In this document: piece after piece, positions 32,801-60,226 of the stretch
How positions within the stretch are numbered: position 1 is the stretch's first letter
How the letters are laid out: each line of letters opens with the position of its first letter
IMG/VR virus record: IMGVR_UViG_3300045988_087184
Origin: a virus
DNA: 64,000 nucleotides
Direction: 5' to 3' (one strand)
Position numbers and translations under genes: made by a program
The notes under the pieces: generated by a model
The model's input: the letters and a program-made list of their open reading frames with translations, nothing else
What the model was told of the DNA's origin: nothing
Database searches by the model: none

Positions 32801-33537
32801 ACAACCCTGCCGCAGGTGATACCATCGTCCTCATGGGTAACAGAAGCGACAGAAGCCGACAGCACCTTCTGATGATGGAGACCGAAGGAGATTCTGCACC
32901 TAGGTTCACTATGTATAGGGGTATCAATACATACTCGCTGAAGGACAAGTCTATCTTTGACGTTTCCTTCGATGGCATCAACATCGTGTCGAAATACTAC
33001 CACTTGACCACCGTTGACGGAGAGAAGATTTGGACACCTATCTATCGTGGCGATTGGAAGGAAGGTACGGAATACGACTACTACGATGAGGTTACATGGA
33101 TGGGAACACGCTGGCTCTGCATCGTCTCAGAAGGACAGACTACAACTGCTGAACCTAGCGAGGACTCGCCTTATTGGAAGGCAACGACCGCAATACAACG
33201 GAATAAGCTACTGATTGATTTGCGTGGGCAAGACACACTTGATTGGGGAGAAACGATTGATGTCGTATGCTCTGTTGTCCGTGGTGATTCTATCGTTGAC
33301 ACATCGAGCGGTTGGGATTGGAGCGTGGAAAGAGATAGCGGCAACAAGCAGGAAGATTCGGCATGGAACGCCACATCTAAGGCTCAGAACTTTAGAGGTG
33401 TAATCAATATCGCATTTACCGAGAAAGAAAATGACCTTGGAGCTGAGAATAAGAACACTTTCGGTGTCGTGTTTACATTCAAGGCTTGGCAAATCGGCAA
33501 CAAAACCAATGAAGTTTCTGCAACACTGAGTGTATGA
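29896..33537 (+). CDS. large tail tip or baseplate-hub-position protein (1213 aa)
   Basis: Size and position after the tape measure and distal tail genes. No domain was recognised by eye. Confidence 0.55.
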   Translation: MSTWNICHKDGSKLTGVNGEQITVHGLEYSDSWMGECFVTINFKHEVPINFQIGDYIVYRGERFELNYEPGKDKQARPDTYGEGFVYDSVKFNALQDELARAEFLDVVLNDNELHYTALPKFPFYVQTLDDLLDRIQANLDEQIGAGLWKIYSRNKERSVQRGCLVSEWLSMYGEGTSDNVIESMSITIDSKTCWEALALVNEKWNVNFIVRGRNIYVGTTGIEAGHIFSYGLGKGLYEIVQNADSDQSVITRLRAYGSEKNLPSHYYADLGVKYVANITKVVTASTNVELELDVDYIETYFKNKRKYVVSGESQEQSFGWVLQVTFDFQTTITGYVTQSGSSGKCRFYSELKGTQTDTGDEESKEKLDTFISQVKAGNTKMYIMSGLNKKVVPSSMKEYAKNLPNNMSINRLMLPGFPHVSLSDFYDSLTEQEKKYVNPTGKLHKFSTDPYRPYIDSLNIEEIGLRSASQFFDTDDKTNGVIEIYPTIEEMEIGGVRVDEIDEGVAPDDDGRFGDNETVKNVDIYLNKAIDFDINDLKDDDFSISMKDGMCGGRTFKVASSTKVDGRWRLTIERSKDDALELWFPYKDYPIKNGDHFVLSGITLPDSYVKAASLKLLKYAIALLDKNDYTRYVYQPKVDELFMARQHDKAQADETGTIKSLHDTLKAGDLMNFNDTDLNIEGIISIDQLTIKEEDGKIPTYDITLREDKEVGTIQKIQQQISSLQNGNGGTGAGLTTTQVKNQVATEGSKHFISKINDNTAKGTITFEKVQKFIKGLFLGNGNNYSIDGNGNAILSSVLVNLLKSLDFNESEQSGFAIKQRSDGKYQMLLTDLIVWGKAVFNTLSIRELSYVGGNIVLSPAAGKISYIKDVYSETTNELIGWKCYLLADDGTTATINSFKVDDQVRCKTFNIKAGVYENVSNKDYWRLVTKVSTENEVITDAEGHELYDGKKFAWIQIAKDNCMEGSDNPAAGDTIVLMGNRSDRSRQHLLMMETEGDSAPRFTMYRGINTYSLKDKSIFDVSFDGINIVSKYYHLTTVDGEKIWTPIYRGDWKEGTEYDYYDEVTWMGTRWLCIVSEGQTTTAEPSEDSPYWKATTAIQRNKLLIDLRGQDTLDWGETIDVVCSVVRGDSIVDTSSGWDWSVERDSGNKQEDSAWNATSKAQNFRGVINIAFTEKENDLGAENKNTFGVVFTFKAWQIGNKTNEVSATLSV

Positions 33538-33573
33538 TAAAATGATTTACGAATTTTAAAATAATTGGAAGTT

Positions 33574-34884
33574 ATGAATAAGAATTTAGGAACGGCAGAT
33601 GTTGCATCATCCGTACAGCAGACGGATAGTGTACTTGCAGAAATTGGTGGTGCTATGAGAAGAGTAAAGGTGAAGGATTTATCAAGAAGCCTTAACCTTT
33701 CCATTACATCACCAGAGGTATACGCATACGGCATTGAGTTCGATGTAACCGTAAGCTCTACGGCTGCAACGAGAATCGGCAACATGAGCATGCACAGAAC
33801 CTTACCAGTACAGACTTTGATGAAGGGATGCTTGCTCGATGATGATGGTAACGTGGTTGACTATCTCGACCCACAGGACTGGACTAAGGCTACACGTGAT
33901 GGAAGCCGAGGTCAGGTTATGGTTGAGCTGCCAGAGTATTACGAGAAGTTTGAGACGGATGGTAACAAGCGTAGGGCATGGATGAGCCTTGAACCTTTGG
34001 CAGGTTTCCGTAAAGTTCCGAAGCGTTACGTGAGTGCCTATCAAGCCTACGTAAAGAATAACAAGCTCTGCTCTATCGCTAGCGTGTTGGCATCAGCCAA
34101 TATCAGCCGTACAGGATTCCGCAATGCGGCAAGAGCGAGAAAGACGGGTAGCGCAGAATGGAACTGCCATGTATATGACATTCAGAGAGAACTCTATTGG
34201 CTCTTTGCTATTGAATATGCCCAGTTGTCTTGTCAGACTAATTACAATGCCGCTCTGACTACCGAAGGTTATCATCAGGGCGGTCTTGGTAGTGGTGTTA
34301 TTTGTGATGGAAATAAGTGGAATACCTATAACGGATATTACCCATTTGTTCCTTGCGGCATGACTGATAGCCTTGGCAACCGAAGCGGTGTTGTTACCTA
34401 CGACACTGGTACGAAGAATGGTGTTACTCTCGGTAAGGTAAGCGTTAACAGATACCGTGGTATCGAGTGCCCATTTGCTCATGTATGGCAGTGGACTGAT
34501 GGAATCAATGTAGAGGTGCAGCCAGGCGATAGTGGCGTTAGCAAGGTATATGTATGCCGTGACCCTAAGAAATTCTCTGATACAGGATATAACGGATATA
34601 CCTATGTCGGCAACGAAGCAAGAACGGAAGGTTTTGTTACACAGATTACCTTTGGCGAATATGGTGACATCACGGCGAAGGCTGTTGGCGGTAGCGATAG
34701 TAGCTATCATGGTGACTATCATTACACTAACATACCTACAGCTACTACTCTACGTGGCGTTCGCTTTGGCGGTCCTGCGAATTTCGGTTCGATCTGCGGC
34801 TTCGTTTTCTCGACTTCGACTTACGTTCCCTCGGCTACGTCTGCGGCTATCGCCTCTCGCCTTTGCTTCCTTCCTGCTGCATAG
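33574..34884 (+). CDS. DGR variable (target) protein with C-type-lectin/FGE-like C-terminal domain
   Basis: ATG 33574 within track ORF 33565..34884. It contains RGIECPFAHVWQWTDG, and the last 44 codons are the VR. Confidence 0.85.
   Translation: MNKNLGTADVASSVQQTDSVLAEIGGAMRRVKVKDLSRSLNLSITSPEVYAYGIEFDVTVSSTAATRIGNMSMHRTLPVQTLMKGCLLDDDGNVVDYLDPQDWTKATRDGSRGQVMVELPEYYEKFETDGNKRRAWMSLEPLAGFRKVPKRYVSAYQAYVKNNKLCSIASVLASANISRTGFRNAARARKTGSAEWNCHVYDIQRELYWLFAIEYAQLSCQTNYNAALTTEGYHQGGLGSGVICDGNKWNTYNGYYPFVPCGMTDSLGNRSGVVTYDTGTKNGVTLGKVSVNRYRGIECPFAHVWQWTDGINVEVQPGDSGVSKVYVCRDPKKFSDTGYNGYTYVGNEARTEGFVTQITFGEYGDITAKAVGGSDSSYHGDYHYTNIPTATTLRGVRFGGPANFGSICGFVFSTSTYVPSATSAAIASRLCFLPAA
34751..34869 (+). 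repeat. DGR variable region (VR)
   Basis: Gap-free 119-nt alignment to TR at a constant offset of 614 nt. There are 21 differences, 20 of them at TR adenines. Confidence 0.9.
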
Positions 34885-34909
34885 TCGAAGCGACACGGCT
34901 CGTCTCACG

Positions 34910-34944
34910 CCCTATGCCGCCCGCCATTTATTGGCGGCATAGGG
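34910..34944 (+). terminator. perfect 12-bp GC-rich hairpin downstream of VR
   Basis: CCCTATGCCGCC, an 11-nt loop, then GGCGGCATAGGG, starting 26 nt after the target stop codon. Confidence 0.6.
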
Positions 34945-34983
34945 TGGATTAAAAATTAGGTTTAACATTAAAATAATAGAAAT

Positions 34984-35340
34984 ATGGCAGACAATACAAA
35001 ACAAGACGACGGAAGTCTTGCATTCTTGAACATTCCTCGCAATGAGAACAGCCGTTCATTCAACTGCAAGGAAGTAAGTCAGAGCAAATTGGTGAATACA
35101 TCATTTTGGCTGATTGATTTCATGGAGGATATTCCGACAAGATTCTCTAAGCAGAAAGGCACGAAAGGTCAGACCTTGGTGCTTGTGAAGCGAAATCTTG
35201 AAGACCCAGAGAGTGAAGCAATGAAGTTCTTCACTGGCTCACAGGATATTCTCTACATCTTGCAGGAGATAAAGAAACGGAATGCCTTTCCTCGCAAGGT
35301 GACAATGCGAGGTAACGGAAACCGATATTTCGTAGAATAA
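34984..35340 (+). CDS. DGR accessory-position protein (118 aa, not obviously Avd-like)
   Basis: It occupies the slot between target and TR where Avd normally lies. The sequence does not resemble a basic four-helix bundle by eye. Confidence 0.6.
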   Translation: MADNTKQDDGSLAFLNIPRNENSRSFNCKEVSQSKLVNTSFWLIDFMEDIPTRFSKQKGTKGQTLVLVKRNLEDPESEAMKFFTGSQDILYILQEIKKRNAFPRKVTMRGNGNRYFVE

Positions 35341-35364
35341 AAGATATTAAGGTTGATGATTCCT

Positions 35365-35483
35365 AACGTGGCGTTCACTTTGGCGGTAATGCGAATAACG
35401 ATTCGAACTGCGGCTTCGTTTACTCGAATTCGAATAACGTTCCCTCGGACACGAATGCGAATATCGCCTCTCACCTATACTTC
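35365..35483 (+). repeat. DGR template region (TR)
   Basis: Intergenic copy of VR, rich in AAC/AAT codons in the VR frame (RGVHFGGNANNDSNCGFVYSNSNNVPSDTNANIASHLYF). Confidence 0.9.
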
Positions 35484-35620
35484 TAAGGTTAAAAATTATG
35501 TATGGGAATCATAACCGCACCTCTTGGTGAAAAATTTAGGAACTCAGAAACGTGTTGGTAGGTATCAGAAATATCGCTGATAGTCGAAGACTCGGAGTAA
35601 GGAAGCAAAATAGCAAAAAG

Positions 35621-36661
35621 ATGAAAAGGATTGGTTATCTCTACGAGAAAATCATATCAATGGATAATCTCAGATTAGCTGACGAAAAGGCTAGGAAGGG
35701 AAAGAGAAATACCTATGGTGTGCGAGTGTTCGATAAGAATAGAGAGGAAAATCTGTTGAAGCTGCATGAGATGCTGAAAAATAAGACGTTCAGAACATCA
35801 AAGTATGACGTATTCACCATCTATGAACCGAAGGAGAGAGTGATATACAGATTACCATACTTTCCCGACAGAATCGTTCACCATGCGATACTGAATATCC
35901 TTGAACCTATATGGCGCAGCGTATTTACGTACAACACATATAGCTGCATCAAGGGCAGAGGAATAGAAGGATGCGCAAGAAGGGTTGGTGAGATTATAAG
36001 AAGGCATCCTATTGACAGACCTCTGTATTGCTTGAAGATAGACATCGTAAAGTACTACCCTAGCATCGACCATGAGGTTATGAAGAGAATTATCAGACGG
36101 AAGATAAAGGACGCTGATGTGCTGAATCTTCTTGACGAGATTATAGATTCTACAGATGGATTGCCGATAGGTAACTATTCAAGTCAGTATTTGGCTAATC
36201 TTTATCTTGCTTACTTCATGCACTGGGTGAACGAAGTGCTGAAAGTCGAGAGTACAGAATATGCAGATGATATAACATTCTTTGCGGAAAATAAAGAAGT
36301 ATTGCATAAAGTTCGCAAAGCTATCAAATGCAAGCTCGAAGGAGAATTGAAGCTAAAGATTAAAGAAAATTGGCAGATATTCAAAATCGGTATAAACAGA
36401 TACGATAAGAGCGGTCGTGCATTGGACTATGTAGGCTATCAGTTCTTCCGCAAGCAGAAACTTATGCGTAAGAGGACGAAGCAGAACCTATGTAGGGAAA
36501 TGAAAGCCGCAAGAAAGAAAGGAATCAAGGAGGATGCACTGAAGATGAGGATAAGCCCTTGGCTAGGGTGGACGGCTCACAGCGATAGCAGACATCTGTT
36601 GGAGAAGATAGGTGCGTTCCACGATATACATAATTATAATTTTAAAAAGATTGCGATATGA
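35621..36661 (+). CDS. DGR reverse transcriptase
   Basis: ATG 35621 (MKRIGYLYEKI) with the DGR-type motif LPIGNYSSQ, plus YADD, in 346 aa. Confidence 0.9.
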   Translation: MKRIGYLYEKIISMDNLRLADEKARKGKRNTYGVRVFDKNREENLLKLHEMLKNKTFRTSKYDVFTIYEPKERVIYRLPYFPDRIVHHAILNILEPIWRSVFTYNTYSCIKGRGIEGCARRVGEIIRRHPIDRPLYCLKIDIVKYYPSIDHEVMKRIIRRKIKDADVLNLLDEIIDSTDGLPIGNYSSQYLANLYLAYFMHWVNEVLKVESTEYADDITFFAENKEVLHKVRKAIKCKLEGELKLKIKENWQIFKIGINRYDKSGRALDYVGYQFFRKQKLMRKRTKQNLCREMKAARKKGIKEDALKMRISPWLGWTAHSDSRHLLEKIGAFHDIHNYNFKKIAI

Positions 36662-37044
36662 AAGTAATTTACGACAATGAGCCTTCTGTATTGGAGGCAG
36701 TAGGAAACGGAAGTCACCGTTATCACTACGACATCAAGGCGGTGAAGGCAGAATCAACAGAGAAGTCTTCGGGTGCGGAATCAAGAACTCAGTACGAGTG
36801 CCAGGAAGTGATTGTATGGGAACCCATCACGTCTAATAAGATTACCGAAGCGGTCATTGCTGATAAGTGGGATGGTAATCAGGAACAGAAGCTCATCAAC
36901 GAGTATAATGCTATTCAGCTTGGCATCACTACTGATAAGGCAGAGATAGCCATCAAGACTGCTGCTTATAAGGAGTTCCTTTCAGAGCGAGTAAGATTGA
37001 AGGCTATCGTTGATGACGACTGCAAGACACTCGGAATCGAGTAA
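36658..37044 (+). CDS. hypothetical protein (128 aa)
   Basis: Track ORF, coupled to the RT stop by an ATGA overlap. Confidence 0.55.
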   Translation: MKVIYDNEPSVLEAVGNGSHRYHYDIKAVKAESTEKSSGAESRTQYECQEVIVWEPITSNKITEAVIADKWDGNQEQKLINEYNAIQLGITTDKAEIAIKTAAYKEFLSERVRLKAIVDDDCKTLGIE

Positions 37045-37077
37045 CGTGATTGTTCTACACTTATAAACAGATAAGAT

Positions 37078-38283
37078 ATGAGAACGGAAAAGAAATTCAT
37101 GCGACGCAGATATGCGCCATTGGTTACTGGATGCTCGCTGACATGCACCACCCCAGAATCGCCACTTACGCAGCTCTATAGCGGTGGTGAATGGCAGCCT
37201 AACCGAGAGGGTACGGCAGCAGTTCCTTGCGGTATCTGCCCTGTCGTCAGCGCATCAGCAAGGGATGGCAGTTGGCAGGGCAATACCCGAAGTAACGCCC
37301 ATCTGTCACAGATGCAATGGTATGTGGACGGACAGAGGATTGAGAGCGTAACAAGCTGGAATGGGAAGTACTCTATCATTACGAGTGGAGACAATAAGGG
37401 AATGCTTATTATCAAGCGCAATATCGGTCTGAACGAGCGTGTAAAGTTGCGTTTTGAGGGGCAGTTGCTCGACTTCCGTAATAATGAGCTTGTGCCAGTA
37501 AAGAGTGACGAGAAAACGCTATATACGGTTCAAGCCGCACAGGATTCATGGAGTGTGGAAACGGATTATCCGCTTAACCTCATGTATTCCTGCATTGATG
37601 ATAATATGCTATTACATGACTATCAGGTAAGTCACGGAATTGCATCATTACTCTCTGAGCAGCAGATTAATGACGGAGAGCAGTATCTTCGCACGGCAGC
37701 AATACGAGTTCGCAAGGGAAAAGATATTCAGACAAGCGGCTATACATTGGAACTCTACCGCACAGATAGCGGAACTGAGGTGAAGATGAGCGTCGGTTAT
37801 GAGGTACAAGCATTATCCCTTACAAGTATGACCCTTGATTTGCGTCTTGTACCTAATGCAGCCACTTATCTCCTTAAAGTGCTTGTTGGCGGTAAGGTGG
37901 TTTGCTTGAAGACTATCTGCACAGTCAACAGATTGCATAAGGCAATATCAGTAAAGCCGAGCGTTGAGAGCGATATTTATCCAGATACAGATATTATGTA
38001 TCAGGAAGCTATCGTAAAATGTAAAGACCATGATGTACCTTGCGCTGAGAACGTGATTAAGATGGTGCTGCTTGGTACAACTGCTTATGAATCTGATGTG
38101 AATCTCGGAGAAGGAAGAGGGGTATTTTTTCGTTTGTCTGACCTTACCATGGGCGACACGCAGAAGGATAACTATGTTGAAACCTGCTTCGACTACGACT
38201 ACAAGGAGGAGTATAAGGTTGCTACTGATGCAAGCGGCAACGTATACACAGATGAGAACGGCAATCCGTTTATCTTTAACTAA
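37078..38283 (+). CDS. tail fibre module protein (401 aa)
   Basis: Track ORF with beta-rich composition, placed by position. Confidence 0.5.
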   Translation: MRTEKKFMRRRYAPLVTGCSLTCTTPESPLTQLYSGGEWQPNREGTAAVPCGICPVVSASARDGSWQGNTRSNAHLSQMQWYVDGQRIESVTSWNGKYSIITSGDNKGMLIIKRNIGLNERVKLRFEGQLLDFRNNELVPVKSDEKTLYTVQAAQDSWSVETDYPLNLMYSCIDDNMLLHDYQVSHGIASLLSEQQINDGEQYLRTAAIRVRKGKDIQTSGYTLELYRTDSGTEVKMSVGYEVQALSLTSMTLDLRLVPNAATYLLKVLVGGKVVCLKTICTVNRLHKAISVKPSVESDIYPDTDIMYQEAIVKCKDHDVPCAENVIKMVLLGTTAYESDVNLGEGRGVFFRLSDLTMGDTQKDNYVETCFDYDYKEEYKVATDASGNVYTDENGNPFIFN

Positions 38284-58650: not shown

Positions 58651-58829
58651 CTACAAGAACCTCTCCGGTTAGCCCACCACGCAAGGCAGGAGAGGTGATG
58701 CACGTGGTGATACAATATGAATACATTACTAAATAGCCTACGTCAAGAATCGGGAGGAGGATGACTTAACAACCTCGCTCCCTTCTTCCAACTAATAAAA
58801 AATTTAAAAAACGTTTGGCAAACACATTG

Positions 58830-58903
58830 AGCTACATGCAGGACTCGAACCTGCGACCCCTTGGGTACAAATCAAGTGCTCTGACCAACTGAGCTAATGT
58901 AGC
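58830..58903 (-). tRNA. tRNA-Thr(UGU) (hand-folded)
   Basis: Canonical cloverleaf with GG in the D-loop, a TTCGAGT T-loop and anticodon loop UUUGUAC. Positions 31-39 form an A-C mismatch. Confidence 0.6.
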
Positions 58904-59039
58904 GGATACCTCCTACTTTCACAAGCAAGAGGAAAATCTAAGAATGTTTTCATTTTCATCTAATCATCATAATGGAATACACTCTGAACGCTTTCAGAGG
59001 AACAATGATAAAATAAATACAAAAATTTACCTACTTGTG

Positions 59040-59111
59040 AAGCCCAAGGGAGACTCAAACTCCCAACCTCGCGGTTCGTTCCACGGCTCTATTCAGTTGA
59101 GCTACTGGGCT
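59040..59111 (-). tRNA. non-canonical tRNA-like gene (6-nt anticodon loop AACGAA)
   Basis: The acceptor, D, anticodon and T stems all pair. The D-loop lacks GG, the T-loop is TTTGAGT, and the anticodon stem CGTGG/CCGCG encloses only 6 nt. Confidence 0.45.
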
Positions 59112-59160
59112 TACCATTTCAACCAATTAAATTTCACGAAAAACGAAAAGAAGCTTATAG

Positions 59161-59233
59161 GGGTGGAGGATGGACTCGCACCATCGACCTCCTGCATTTA
59201 TAACAGGCGCTCTTGCTACTGAGCTACTCCACT
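59161..59233 (-). tRNA. non-canonical tRNA-like gene (anticodon loop UAUAAAU)
   Basis: A cloverleaf can be drawn, but positions 1-72 form an A-C mismatch, the D-loop lacks GG, the T-loop is TGCGAGT and position 33 is A. Confidence 0.45.
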
Positions 59234-59354
59234 CGATTTAGAACGAATATAATCTATTACACTAAAGCTCTTTTAAAAGCAGCCTACCCTCACGGGCGAG
59301 CTGCCTACATGTATCAATCTTTTTCACCTTATTTTAGTTTGAAGAAAACTGTTG

Positions 59355-59428
59355 TTGCAGGTGCAGAACTCGAATCTGCGACCTTTGGCTCATGAGGCCA
59401 ACGAGCTAGCCAACTGCTCCAACCTGCG
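59355..59428 (-). tRNA. initiator-type tRNA-Met(CAU)
   Basis: CGCAGGTTGGAGCAG...CTCATGA... closely parallels bacterial tRNA-fMet. It has a C1-A72 mismatch and three G-C pairs closing the anticodon stem. Confidence 0.8.
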
Positions 59429-59523
59429 ATATGGCAGTCTATTCTCCCGAACCGGCTGCGAAGGAAACAATTCAATAAAGTCATTTATATCAAAATAAAT
59501 GAAACGAAACAAGTTAATCATTT

Positions 59524-59614
59524 GGAGGTAATGGAGGACTCGAACCTCCATCTCACGACGATAAGAACGGTATCATCTAGTTGTCGCTGTGCTTCCGATT
59601 ACACCAATCACCTC
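59524..59614 (-). tRNA. tRNA-like gene with a ~16-nt insertion in the anticodon loop
   Basis: The acceptor (7-8 bp), D and T arms are normal. The anticodon stem GCGAC/GTCGT encloses 23 nt beginning AACTAGA. Confidence 0.45.
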
Positions 59615-60152
59615 TTTTATCTGAATTAGCAAGAACCTCAAGTCTATGTATTCTACACCTTTTATATATAATATAAGAGGCTTGCCAACGCCAACCATTC
59701 TCGATGGTGGACTTGCATGGCCATAGGGTTCTTTGACTCTCCGGTGCCGGGGTTATAGATCCAGGCACCTTCGGCCAGAGATTTACATCTTCTTCTCATT
59801 GATCCGCCGCTTACCACGACAATTCTTCGTTCCGTGGCAGTTCGGCGGATGGGAAATTTATGAAAGAGTAAATCCTGTCTAACTGGTCTTCCGTGCTACG
59901 TGCGTTCCTTCTGGGCATCTTCGCTATAGGTTCCCGACCTGAGATAATTAAATCCGCTCTACCCGTACTATCTTACACGTACACTAACGCTATAATGCGC
60001 TATATGTCCAATATGTCAAAGAACTACTTCTCCTATCCTTTTAGAACCTCTACTGATGCAAGATTGTAGCTGCACGGACTACCTACTTTATAAGGTAAGG
60101 GCTTACCTTTGCACCGTTCGAGATACATACGAAACGGGATTGTAAGAGAGTG

Positions 60153-60226
60153 CGACTGAGGTGAGGTTCGAACTCACGCCCCGGTGATTAGGAATCAACC
60201 TGCTCTATCCACTGAGCTACTCAGCC
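60153..60226 (-). tRNA. tRNA-Arg(CCU) (hand-folded)
   Basis: The D-arm (GG) and T-arm (TTCGAAC) are canonical and the anticodon loop is UUCCUAA. The anticodon stem has one U-C mismatch. Confidence 0.55.

Follow-up and report, generated by a model that had tools for sequence, protein, structure and literature searches.

The 64,000-nucleotide stretch of virus DNA held as IMG/VR virus record IMGVR_UViG_3300045988_087184 (one strand, 5' to 3'; hereafter the window) carries, between positions 33574 and 36661, a diversity-generating retroelement (DGR) set in the tail module of a phage. In this report, we describe its parts: a target gene ending in a variable repeat (VR), a small open reading frame (ORF), a template repeat (TR), a 137-nt spacer and a gene for a reverse transcriptase (RT). 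We estimate the probability that this is a working DGR of the type known from phage BPP-1 at about 90%. The element lacks an Avd protein, and a 118-aa ORF of another kind stands in its place. The features of the locus, each with coordinates and strand, are as follows.

33574-34884, plus strand: target gene, an ORF for a 436-aa tail-module protein with the VR at its C-terminus (phrog_5302 'tail protein', E 5.8e-115)
34752-34849, plus strand: mutagenised tract of the VR (codons ~393-426), a gap-free match to TR 35366-35463
34850-34872, plus strand: VR 3' end of the initiation of mutagenic homing (IMH) type, TCGCCTCTCGCCTTTGCTTC plus CTT of the flank, encoding ...ASRLCF; invariant in nine related VRs
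34908-34946, no strand assigned: 14-bp G+C-rich inverted repeat, ~40 nt downstream of the VR (DNA fold -19.7 kcal/mol, z -3.1)
34984-35340, plus strand: 118-aa basic protein (isoelectric point, pI, 9.3), not an Avd, candidate lineage-specific DGR cofactor (phrog_19665 'unknown function')
35351-35363, plus strand: GGTTGATGATTCC, the 13 nt just upstream of the TR; upstream strand of a duplex that brackets the TR, pairing with 35505-35516
35366-35483, plus strand: TR, A-rich and untranslated, its last ~20 nt being IMH* (from the repeat search and comparison with relatives)
35505-35534, plus strand: spacer strand of the bracketing duplex (35505-35516), hairpin P1 (35518-35521 with 35526-35529, loop UCUU) and A-run (35530-35534), from covariation
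35551-35594, plus strand: P2 stem-loop domain, with outer stem 35551-35555/35590-35594 and inner hairpin ~35563-35582, from the RT-17 alignment and covarying pairs
35599-35609, plus strand: AAGGAAGCAAA, complement of the VR IMH (11/11 to VR 34862-34872), candidate primer strand and homing guide
35621-36661, plus strand: DGR reverse transcriptase, 346 aa (RVT_1, E 4.9e-14; phrog_1423; IGNYSSQ and YADD)
36658-37044, plus strand: 128-aa acidic ORF overlapping the RT stop codon (ATGA), present after the RT in nearly all loci

A repeat search of positions 33000-37500 returned a single direct repeat of 118 nt (34752-34869 and 35366-35483), gap-free and with a spacing of 614. The first-pass annotation of this DNA, which was made from the letters alone, had given the pair 119 nt at the same offset; the gap-free offset stands, and the extent has to be shortened. 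The extra column (A at 35365, T at 34751) is identical in all nine related genomes and is therefore outside the repeat. When the 119-nt coordinates were re-compared, the recount agreed with the 21 differences previously listed, namely 20 at TR adenines and a lone C>T (TR 35450, VR 34836), and the realigned mismatches were strongly biased to adenine (hypergeometric P for at least 20 of 21 differences on A, 7.8e-15). The substituted adenines are replaced by T (8), C (7) and G (5) in roughly equal numbers, and codon positions 1 or 2 take nearly all substitutions between the two repeats. The VR spans codons 393-432 of the 436-aa target.

Three of the differences lie close to the end of the repeat, where TR 35473, 35477 and 35479 read A, A and A against G, T and G in the VR. 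The same bases are found in 9/9 related VRs, and two of the three differences are fixed family-wide, over RT identities of 48-100%. They are differences between IMH and IMH*, not products of mutagenesis. With these three set aside and the first column outside the repeat, the mutagenised tract is therefore TR 35366-35463, which holds 25 adenines, 16 of them (64%) substituted in the window, plus the one C>T. The TR does count 29 adenines within the 119-nt coordinates, and the earlier figure of 20 of 29 substituted is an overcount by four positions. No further VR-like copy matching the non-A positions of the TR was found on either strand of the 64-kb window; related phage contigs measure 75-88 kb, so that 10-25 kb of the genome lies outside it.

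The IMG/VR database was scanned with the RT, which gave 80 loci (81 RT-seeded loci with the window). Nine genomes were compared closely: the window and L001-L006, L034 and L044, whose RTs are 90-99% identical to that of the window and which, judged by their sequences, are independent samples of the same phage lineage. Within each genome, its own TR and VR differ at 14-23 positions, all of them adenines barring five events in three genomes (rare exceptions at C or G), and all 25 internal TR adenines vary across the nine VRs. Substitutions at non-A positions of the TR (seven columns, mostly in L006) recur as the same base in the cognate VR, and information therefore flows from TR to VR. Identity of the relatives to the window is 93-99% in the TR, 79-87% in the VR and 89-94% in the 300 nt upstream of the VR. 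The adenine-specific TR/VR signature was recovered in 59/81 RT-seeded loci (window included), at RT identities down to 48%; the loci with no detected pair mostly have too little upstream sequence. Polymorphism at the A-templated VR sites, by which the first-pass annotation had proposed to judge its own reading, is thus seen between independent samples and favours a DGR. Adenine mutagenesis is evidently ongoing in the lineage, to judge from this heterogeneity between samples (25/25 A columns, and 2108 variants in the protein cluster described below).

In three related loci, the TRs (L021, 5732-5851; L032, 5735-5851; L048, 5734-5849) have lost adenines where sister TRs have A, and TR equals own VR at those places. 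Only 8 differences separate TR and VR in L032, and adenines account for 6/16 in L021. The pattern suggests that the VR has occasionally converted the TR, or that retrohoming has gone into the TR, either of which would erode the capacity for diversification.

Reverse transcriptases of DGRs carry a [LIV]GxxxSQ motif in place of the retroviral QGxxxSP, plus YxDD. IGNYSSQ, YADD, the ATG at 35621 and the translations quoted in the first-pass annotation are all present in the sequence, and the assignment of the enzyme to the DGR type was confirmed. Its best relative in the PDB is 8ub7_A, a 328-aa chain named 'Reverse transcriptase' (E 1.6e-34), and group II intron and retron RTs match at 1e-11 or worse; among NCBIfam models, those of group II introns and retrons are matched below threshold only. 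The bRT taken from the BPP-1 genome record is likewise 328 aa long and 31% identical to the window RT over its full length (E 2e-41), and from the equal length and the matching alignment 8ub7_A was identified as presumably bRT itself. Among annotated RTs, those of crAss-like phage DGRs come closest, with 40-48% identity (crAssphage LMMB, 41.8%). The LMMB enzyme was placed in 'lineage 3' of Wu et al. by Morozova et al. (PMC7290462), and the window DGR may belong to that lineage by its nearest-neighbour RTs.

Homologs of the target in crAss-like and Bacteroides phages carry tail-protein annotations and reach 43.5% identity. At 90% identity the target falls into cluster P0121, with 2108 distinct sequences, and 2,458 homologs can be collected for an alignment. 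When targets of at least 86% identity are compared, the variability of the protein is highest at the A-templated codons (aa 397-426). The RT, the repeat pair and the gene context together support the earlier description of a complete DGR diversifying the C-terminus of a tail-module protein. The end of the VR, ...ASRLCF, contains the SRLC motif of the 'CLec3' VR class, the members of which were recognised through Phyre2 only (Wu et al., PMC5758913). A formylglycine-generating enzyme (FGE)/C-type-lectin-like signature had also been claimed for RGIECPFAHVWQWTDG; Pfam and PDB profile searches neither detect nor refute it, and searches of Pfam, NCBIfam and PDB sequences with the protein or a 36-sequence profile gave no match to a C-type-lectin or FGE fold. 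The AlphaFold2 (AF2) model of the target, built on a 36-sequence alignment, has a predicted local distance difference test (pLDDT) score of 56, falling below 50 over residues 236-311 and 395-436; it is unusable over the C-terminal half, and Foldseek searches with it returned noise. A receptor-binding role of the target is suggested by gene context and family annotation and not by a fold, which counts against the reading of the VR as part of a receptor-binding tip.

Short variable patches were also seen in the target outside the VR, at aa 243-256 (34300-34341), 304-307, 351-352 and 384-386, again among targets at least 86% identical; an example is VI-CDGNKWNTYNGYY against VIGADWTKWTTYNRNN. None of the patches is matched by a TR. 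They may be loops that lie beside the VR-encoded surface and co-evolve with it, or recombination tracts. The segment claimed as the FGE signature includes one of them (HVWQW).

The 137-nt spacer had been named in the first-pass annotation as the site of a priming element, and it holds an RT-17 RNA together with an element of priming type. The Rfam model RF03020 (RT-17) matches 35513-35620 over its full length (1-95 of 95) with 55.1 bits, against a gathering score of 40.4; the threshold is also passed by five relatives and not by two crAss-like loci tested. The spacer strand of the bracketing duplex, P1 and the A-run make up the 5' part of this match, and a GGAAGCA element of the window is an insertion relative to the model. 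Across 26 lineages, 9 of the 11 pairs of the bracketing duplex show compensatory changes. When the duplex, P1 and P2 were taken together, 98.9% of the alignment cells were paired, against 33-52% with the partners slid by 1-3 columns, and 16/21 pairs had changed on both sides. The covariation score was 0.60, against 0.08-0.21 for slid partners, and 0/500 shuffles reached the observed values. Folded as one RNA, the whole TR-spacer segment was no more stable than shuffles (z -0.4).

In BPP-1, the cPRT Stop is formed by a segment upstream of the TR that pairs with the spacer and is followed by a short stem-loop and unpaired adenosines, and elements of this type were surveyed just in DGRs with Avd homologs (10.1101/2023.10.23.563531). 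The covariation supports the view that the bracketing duplex, P1 and the A-run form a cPRT-Stop-like structure in a lineage without Avd. A literature search for RT-17 together with DGR found no report. Rfam lists RT-17 as an sRNA-type motif only, and the 5' partner strand, upstream of the TR, is outside the model; the spacer matches the whole of that model, and RT-17 would on our covariation analysis be the 3' half of a DGR RNA. In many lineages (e.g. L022, L085, L095), the linker after the TR holds a hairpin capped by a UUCG or GCAA tetraloop, at the place where BPP-1 has the Avd-binding stem-loop. The linker of the window lineage (35484-35503) is 19 nt and has no hairpin.

At the 3' ends of the repeats, the window has TCGCCTCTCGCCTTTGCTTC in the VR against TCGCCTCTCACCTATACTTC in the TR, and family-wide the VR ends in ...CTCTCGCCTTTGCT and the TR in ...CTCTCACCTATGCT. 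One of the fixed differences, CTT in the VR and CTA in the TR, is synonymous (both Leu), and selection on the protein therefore cannot explain it. The IMH/IMH* pair of BPP-1 comes after an A-free G+C-rich tract (PMC5703328), and the pair of the window is likewise preceded by such a tract. A hairpin placed right after the VR as in BPP-1 was sought and rejected: the lineages have no consistent short hairpin there, and a larger one occurs at +20 to +46 past the VR. In 15/29 lineages, a perfect stem of at least 6 bp was found in that interval, with differing sequences and compensatory changes. From its sequence and position, the 34908-34946 inverted repeat could correspond to the target stem-loop of BPP-1, or be simply a terminator; that a strict criterion finds the hairpin in just 15/29 lineages tells against the former.

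The small ORF between target and TR departs from the known scheme. The first-pass annotation had called the order target, accessory, TR, RT canonical; the order is as given, and the accessory is not Avd. Avd proteins are basic four-helix bundles of ~110-130 aa. The bAvd profile (PF22296) gave no match to the 118-aa ORF at E <= 10, with 7.3e-36 for BPP-1 Avd as control, and hhalign of the protein against BPP-1 Avd gave a probability of 0.3%; no Avd domain was found among the 83 small ORFs of the window. The AF2 model (pLDDT 76) is mixed alpha/beta, with five strands and one long helix and no helical bundle, so that the resemblance to Avd is limited to size and charge. Searches with the protein gave no match in Pfam or NCBIfam, none in the PDB by sequence or fold, and none by tblastn in 50,697 annotated phage records, in which megablast of the cassette also found no match. 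Its homologs fall into ~600 unnamed clusters at 90% identity, and a profile search of 1.84 billion representatives returned 120 family members, all of 257 aa or shorter.

We consider a role of this protein as a cofactor of the RT or its RNA slightly better than an even bet. A homolog is present in nearly all of the 80 RT-seeded loci. Conversely, 23 genome loci were found through the 118-aa protein alone, and an RT is present in every one with enough sequence; 19/23 have an A-biased TR/VR pair, the other four being truncated or lacking upstream sequence. Among these loci are those of Phocaeicola coprocola DSM 17136, Mediterranea massiliensis and a complete Muribaculaceae chromosome. The same layout, an accessory ORF, a gap of ~275-285 nt and an ORF at the RT position, recurs in distant members of the family (profile E 3e-14 to 1e-5) behind different upstream genes, of 460 aa or, in L114, of 1128 aa. 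The ORF at the RT position is complete in five of these loci, where it encodes a 335-344-aa RVT_1 protein, and is cut by the contig end in L111, L114 and L115. All seven gaps hold a TR matching an upstream VR, with the differences fully or almost fully at adenines in six and less cleanly so in L115 (16/21).

It is also conceivable, though we think it the less probable course, that the 118-aa ORF is an unrelated phage gene, for a tail-assembly or virion protein, carried along by synteny, and that the lineage needs no accessory or uses a host factor. The ORF has no functional or structural assignment, Wu et al. warned that nested ORFs can be phage genes common to related phages (PMC5758913), and no homolog of the 118-aa protein occurs in the crAss-like DGRs whose RTs are related (40-48% identity). 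Five loci (L014, L031, L035, L042 and L046) carry a 28-31% identical copy downstream of the 128-aa ORF and not beside the TR. In this sub-lineage, only ~214-240 nt, without an ORF, separate the VR from the TR that follows it, and the upstream strand and RT-17 are kept; the accessory gene can therefore move within the cassette. Against carriage by synteny stand the RT and A-biased repeats of every accessory-seeded locus with enough sequence, the arrangement kept by the distant members, and the small family, which was never seen without an RT, whereas the target and the 128-aa ORF both have homologs where no RT is present; the protein is in addition basic and of the size of Avd. Against the cofactor role itself, it must be said that linkage, size and charge are all that point to it.

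In the BFVD database, the best Foldseek matches of the 118-aa model are 'reverse transcriptase domain-containing' viral proteins (E 5.5e-7, TM 0.62 over 95 columns), among them one of 493 aa (25% identity), and a 'retron-type' RT of cr7_1. At the sequence level, fusion of the domain to an RT was rejected: no homolog exceeds 257 aa, and hhalign found no similarity to the window RT or to a small cr50_1 ORF. The matches of the model may reflect fusion to RTs elsewhere, or mere likeness to part of the RT fold.

The element at 35599-35609, near the 3' end of the spacer, is the second feature for which a function may be proposed. It complements the VR end TTTGCTTCCTT (34862-34872), which reaches 3 nt beyond the repeat. 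To the 3' end of the TR, AAGGAAGCAAA forms only 7/11 pairs, one of them a G-U wobble, and the mismatches stand opposite TR adenines. Almost every lineage has the main-type element AAAGCAAAG near the 3' end of the spacer, and where the VR end differs, so does the element:

VR 3' end CTTTGCTTT, element AAAGCAAAG: main type
VR 3' end TTTGCTTCC, element GGAAGCAAA: window, L007 and L109
VR 3' end CTCTGCTA, element UAGCAGAG: L110
VR 3' end TTTGCTTTATTGC (including 5 nt of VR-only flank), element GCAAUAAAGCAAA: L113

Over 33 lineages, the longest perfect complement to the VR end had a mean of 8.7 nt; the corresponding means were 5.3 nt for the TR end and 5.2 nt with shuffled spacers, and the VR run exceeded the TR run in 32/33. 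In a group at 56% identity and in L110, the element also matches the TR-specific flank, which fits pairing with both partners. The published mechanism of the BPP-1 DGR (10.1101/2023.10.23.563531, PMC6182149, PMC5703328) served for calibration: the reverse complement of its primer strand, Sp47-56, is TGACCACCTA, which matches the VR IMH TGACCACCT at 9/9 and the TR IMH* TGCCCATCAC imperfectly. Pairing of primer RNA with IMH in BPP-1 was noted by Naorem et al. and proposed to direct integration of the complementary DNA (cDNA) (PMC5703328). By analogy with BPP-1, 35599-35609 is fairly probably the primer strand and the element that docks at the VR.

Several observations weigh against this assignment. 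The candidate lies 3' of the stop strand and the stem-loops, whereas the BPP-1 primer strand lies 2 nt 5' of the stop strand; it stands directly before the RT start codon and could in part reflect a translation leader; and the lineages are related and the element conserved, so that the covariation amounts to no more than about five independent events. A primer strand placed as in BPP-1, immediately 5' of the stop strand, was considered and is not supported, since by eye no conserved complementarity to the TR end is seen there. The other explanation, which we regard as unlikely, is that the element (AAAGCAAAG in most lineages) is an A-rich translation leader of the RT or some other feature of RT-17, that priming takes place elsewhere and that the match to the VR is incidental. 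In its favour are the position 8-20 nt before the RT AUG, a conserved AUAUAA-like motif just 5' of the stop strand, the order of primer and stop strand in BPP-1, and the conservation of both the element and the VR end (encoding SRLCF), by which most lineages give no independent test. An incidental match is hard to square with a complementarity that follows the sequence changes (TTTGCTTCC/GGAAGCAAA, CTCTGCTA/UAGCAGAG and, into VR-only flank, TTTGCTTTATTGC/GCAAUAAAGCAAA), with perfect runs well beyond those of shuffled spacers and longer to the VR than to the TR, or with BPP-1, whose experimentally defined primer strand has the same preference for the VR; and the segment 5' of the stop strand, as said, shows by eye no conserved complementarity to the TR end.

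That the cassette is a fossil, in which mutagenic retrohoming no longer operates in the window genome, is very improbable. In favour of decay, ordinary drift is shown by the C>T at 35450 and by a further TR mutation within IMH* (TGC>TAC), and adenines have been lost from the TRs of L021, L032 and L048. Against it, the window has an unbroken RT ORF with its catalytic motifs, every RNA helix is preserved in it, and its TR retains 25 mutable adenines; genomes whose RTs are 96-99% identical have different VRs, with the differences confined to A sites; and 2108 sequence variants fall into a single 90% cluster. A diverged duplication beside a retron or group II intron RT, to which only the sub-threshold NCBIfam matches would point, can be dismissed in view of the adenine bias (P 7.8e-15), the copying of TR changes to the VR, the IGNYSSQ motif, a best structural relative identified with bRT, and Rfam scans that found RT-17 and no intron RNA domains or retron msr/msd.

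The genes around the cassette agree with a DGR in a tail module. Upstream of the target are a 2096-aa tape measure protein and a 1213-aa protein, and downstream are fibre-like ORFs, as the earlier placement of the target had it. Homologs of the 128-aa ORF follow a target homolog without an adjacent RT in Porphyromonas phage 005b and cr111_1, and in cr50_1, where the RT lies upstream of the target, the homolog is still found after the target. The 128-aa ORF was therefore rejected as a DGR component, since it travels with target-family tail proteins in the absence of an adjacent RT, and it was rejected as the CH1 of Wu et al. because its size differs. Its probable role, from this distribution, is that of a partner to the target in the tail module, or a chaperone for it, outside the DGR; accessory, TR and RT appear to have been inserted together, as one unit, between a tail protein and the gene that normally follows it. 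The window also encodes a primase, portal, large terminase and major head protein, which with the tape measure indicate a siphovirus-type phage. No cultured phage is closely related to it (24.6% identity between its major capsid protein and the one from a Bacteroides uniformis phage), and one target homolog is labelled Prevotella sp.; the phage is uncultured, with a gut Bacteroidales host, possibly Prevotella. A cluster of tRNA genes lies on the minus strand at 58829-60226, where ARAGORN calls five (Thr-TGT, Leu-TAA, Met-CAT, a 90-nt 'Ser' ACT and Arg-CCT) and the Rfam tRNA model passes 3/5; unusual tRNAs or false positives could account for the Ser-ACT and Leu-TAA calls.

Taken together, a working model of the element can be proposed. 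A transcript would span the short segment upstream of the TR, the TR and the 137-nt spacer. The upstream segment would pair with the spacer, so that duplex, hairpin and A-run form the cPRT Stop-like structure, with P2 after it. The spacer element AAGGAAGCAAA probably primes synthesis, and the RT would copy the TR into cDNA, misincorporating opposite adenines. The element is a perfect partner for the VR IMH but an imperfect one for the TR IMH*, and a cDNA joined to the primer RNA could for that reason dock at the VR only, which would make the transfer one-way. The cDNA would then replace the VR from 34752 to ~34849, recoding up to 16 codons near the C-terminus and presumably changing receptor specificity. 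With no Avd, the 118-aa basic alpha/beta protein would be the likely cofactor of RT or RNA.

Comparison with the BPP-1 DGR (mtd-avd-TR-brt) shows extensive similarities. Both have the order target, small basic protein, TR, spacer and RT, a VR at the 3' end of a tail gene, and adenine-specific transfer from TR to VR; both have an A-free G+C-rich tract and then IMH/IMH* differences, RTs alignable over their full length (31% identity), a segment upstream of the TR that pairs with the spacer beside a short hairpin and adenosines, a spacer element perfect to the VR IMH and imperfect to the TR IMH*, and a G+C-rich inverted repeat downstream of the VR. They differ in the small protein, a four-helix bundle in Avd and predicted alpha/beta without Avd similarity in the window, and in the IMH-complementary element, which is at the spacer 3' end in the window and 2 nt before the stop strand in BPP-1. 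The upstream strand is intergenic in the window and inside avd in BPP-1, the post-TR linker of the window lineage is short and without a stem-loop of the Avd-binding type, the inverted repeat lies ~40 nt from the VR instead of ~4 nt, and the window target has no detectable similarity to Mtd.

The lineage 3/CLec3 DGRs (PMC5758913) and that of crAssphage LMMB (PMC7290462) share with the window the nearest RTs, homologous 'tail protein' targets, the SRLC end of the VR, the lack of avd and Bacteroidales hosts. They are described as target-TR-RT without an accessory gene, whereas the window has the conserved 118-aa ORF; the crAss-like carrier is a podovirus and the window phage siphovirus-type with a tape measure protein; and RT-17, which occurs throughout the window family, is missing from the two crAss-like loci. 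Small non-Avd ORFs conserved inside DGR cassettes have been described before, as CH1, MSL and HRDC (Wu et al. 2018). CH1 is restricted to avd-less lineage-3a DGRs of Bacteroides relatives (PMC5758913), and it is acidic (pI 4.7) and of 160-169 aa, in contrast to the basic 118-aa ORF, which moreover has no MutS-like or HRDC Pfam match. The 118-aa ORF is set apart from CH1 by these descriptions, and it may be one of the 'PAG' candidates.

Gut Bacteroidales phages commonly carry DGRs on tail proteins, and catalogues of such elements exist (PMC7290462, PMC5758913, PMC8143477). In kind, the present element is an ordinary DGR on a gut-phage tail protein and expected biology, and its details are of moderate, specialist interest. 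An 'Avd-independent variation of mutagenic retrohoming' was inferred by Wu et al. (PMC5758913), and a sub-lineage of at least 100 public loci without Avd, with a small basic protein beside TR and RT in nearly all, is a concrete candidate for it. The cPRT-Stop-type architecture, earlier surveyed in Avd-encoding DGRs only, is here backed by strong covariation in an Avd-less lineage. Integration of the cDNA is the main open step of the DGR mechanism, and the conserved, covarying complement of the VR IMH gives independent comparative support to the proposal of Naorem et al. that primer RNA guides the cDNA to the VR; the docking idea is already published, and its conservation and covariation in a distant lineage are what is added here. 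Whether the 118-aa alpha/beta protein founds an undescribed class of DGR accessory, replacing Avd in a lineage of Bacteroidales phages and working with an RT-17 RNA that keeps the BPP-1 logic in a rearranged order, is in our estimate an evenly balanced matter. If it does, the family would offer a compact natural system for learning what Avd contributes and whether pairing of primer RNA with IMH directs cDNA integration.

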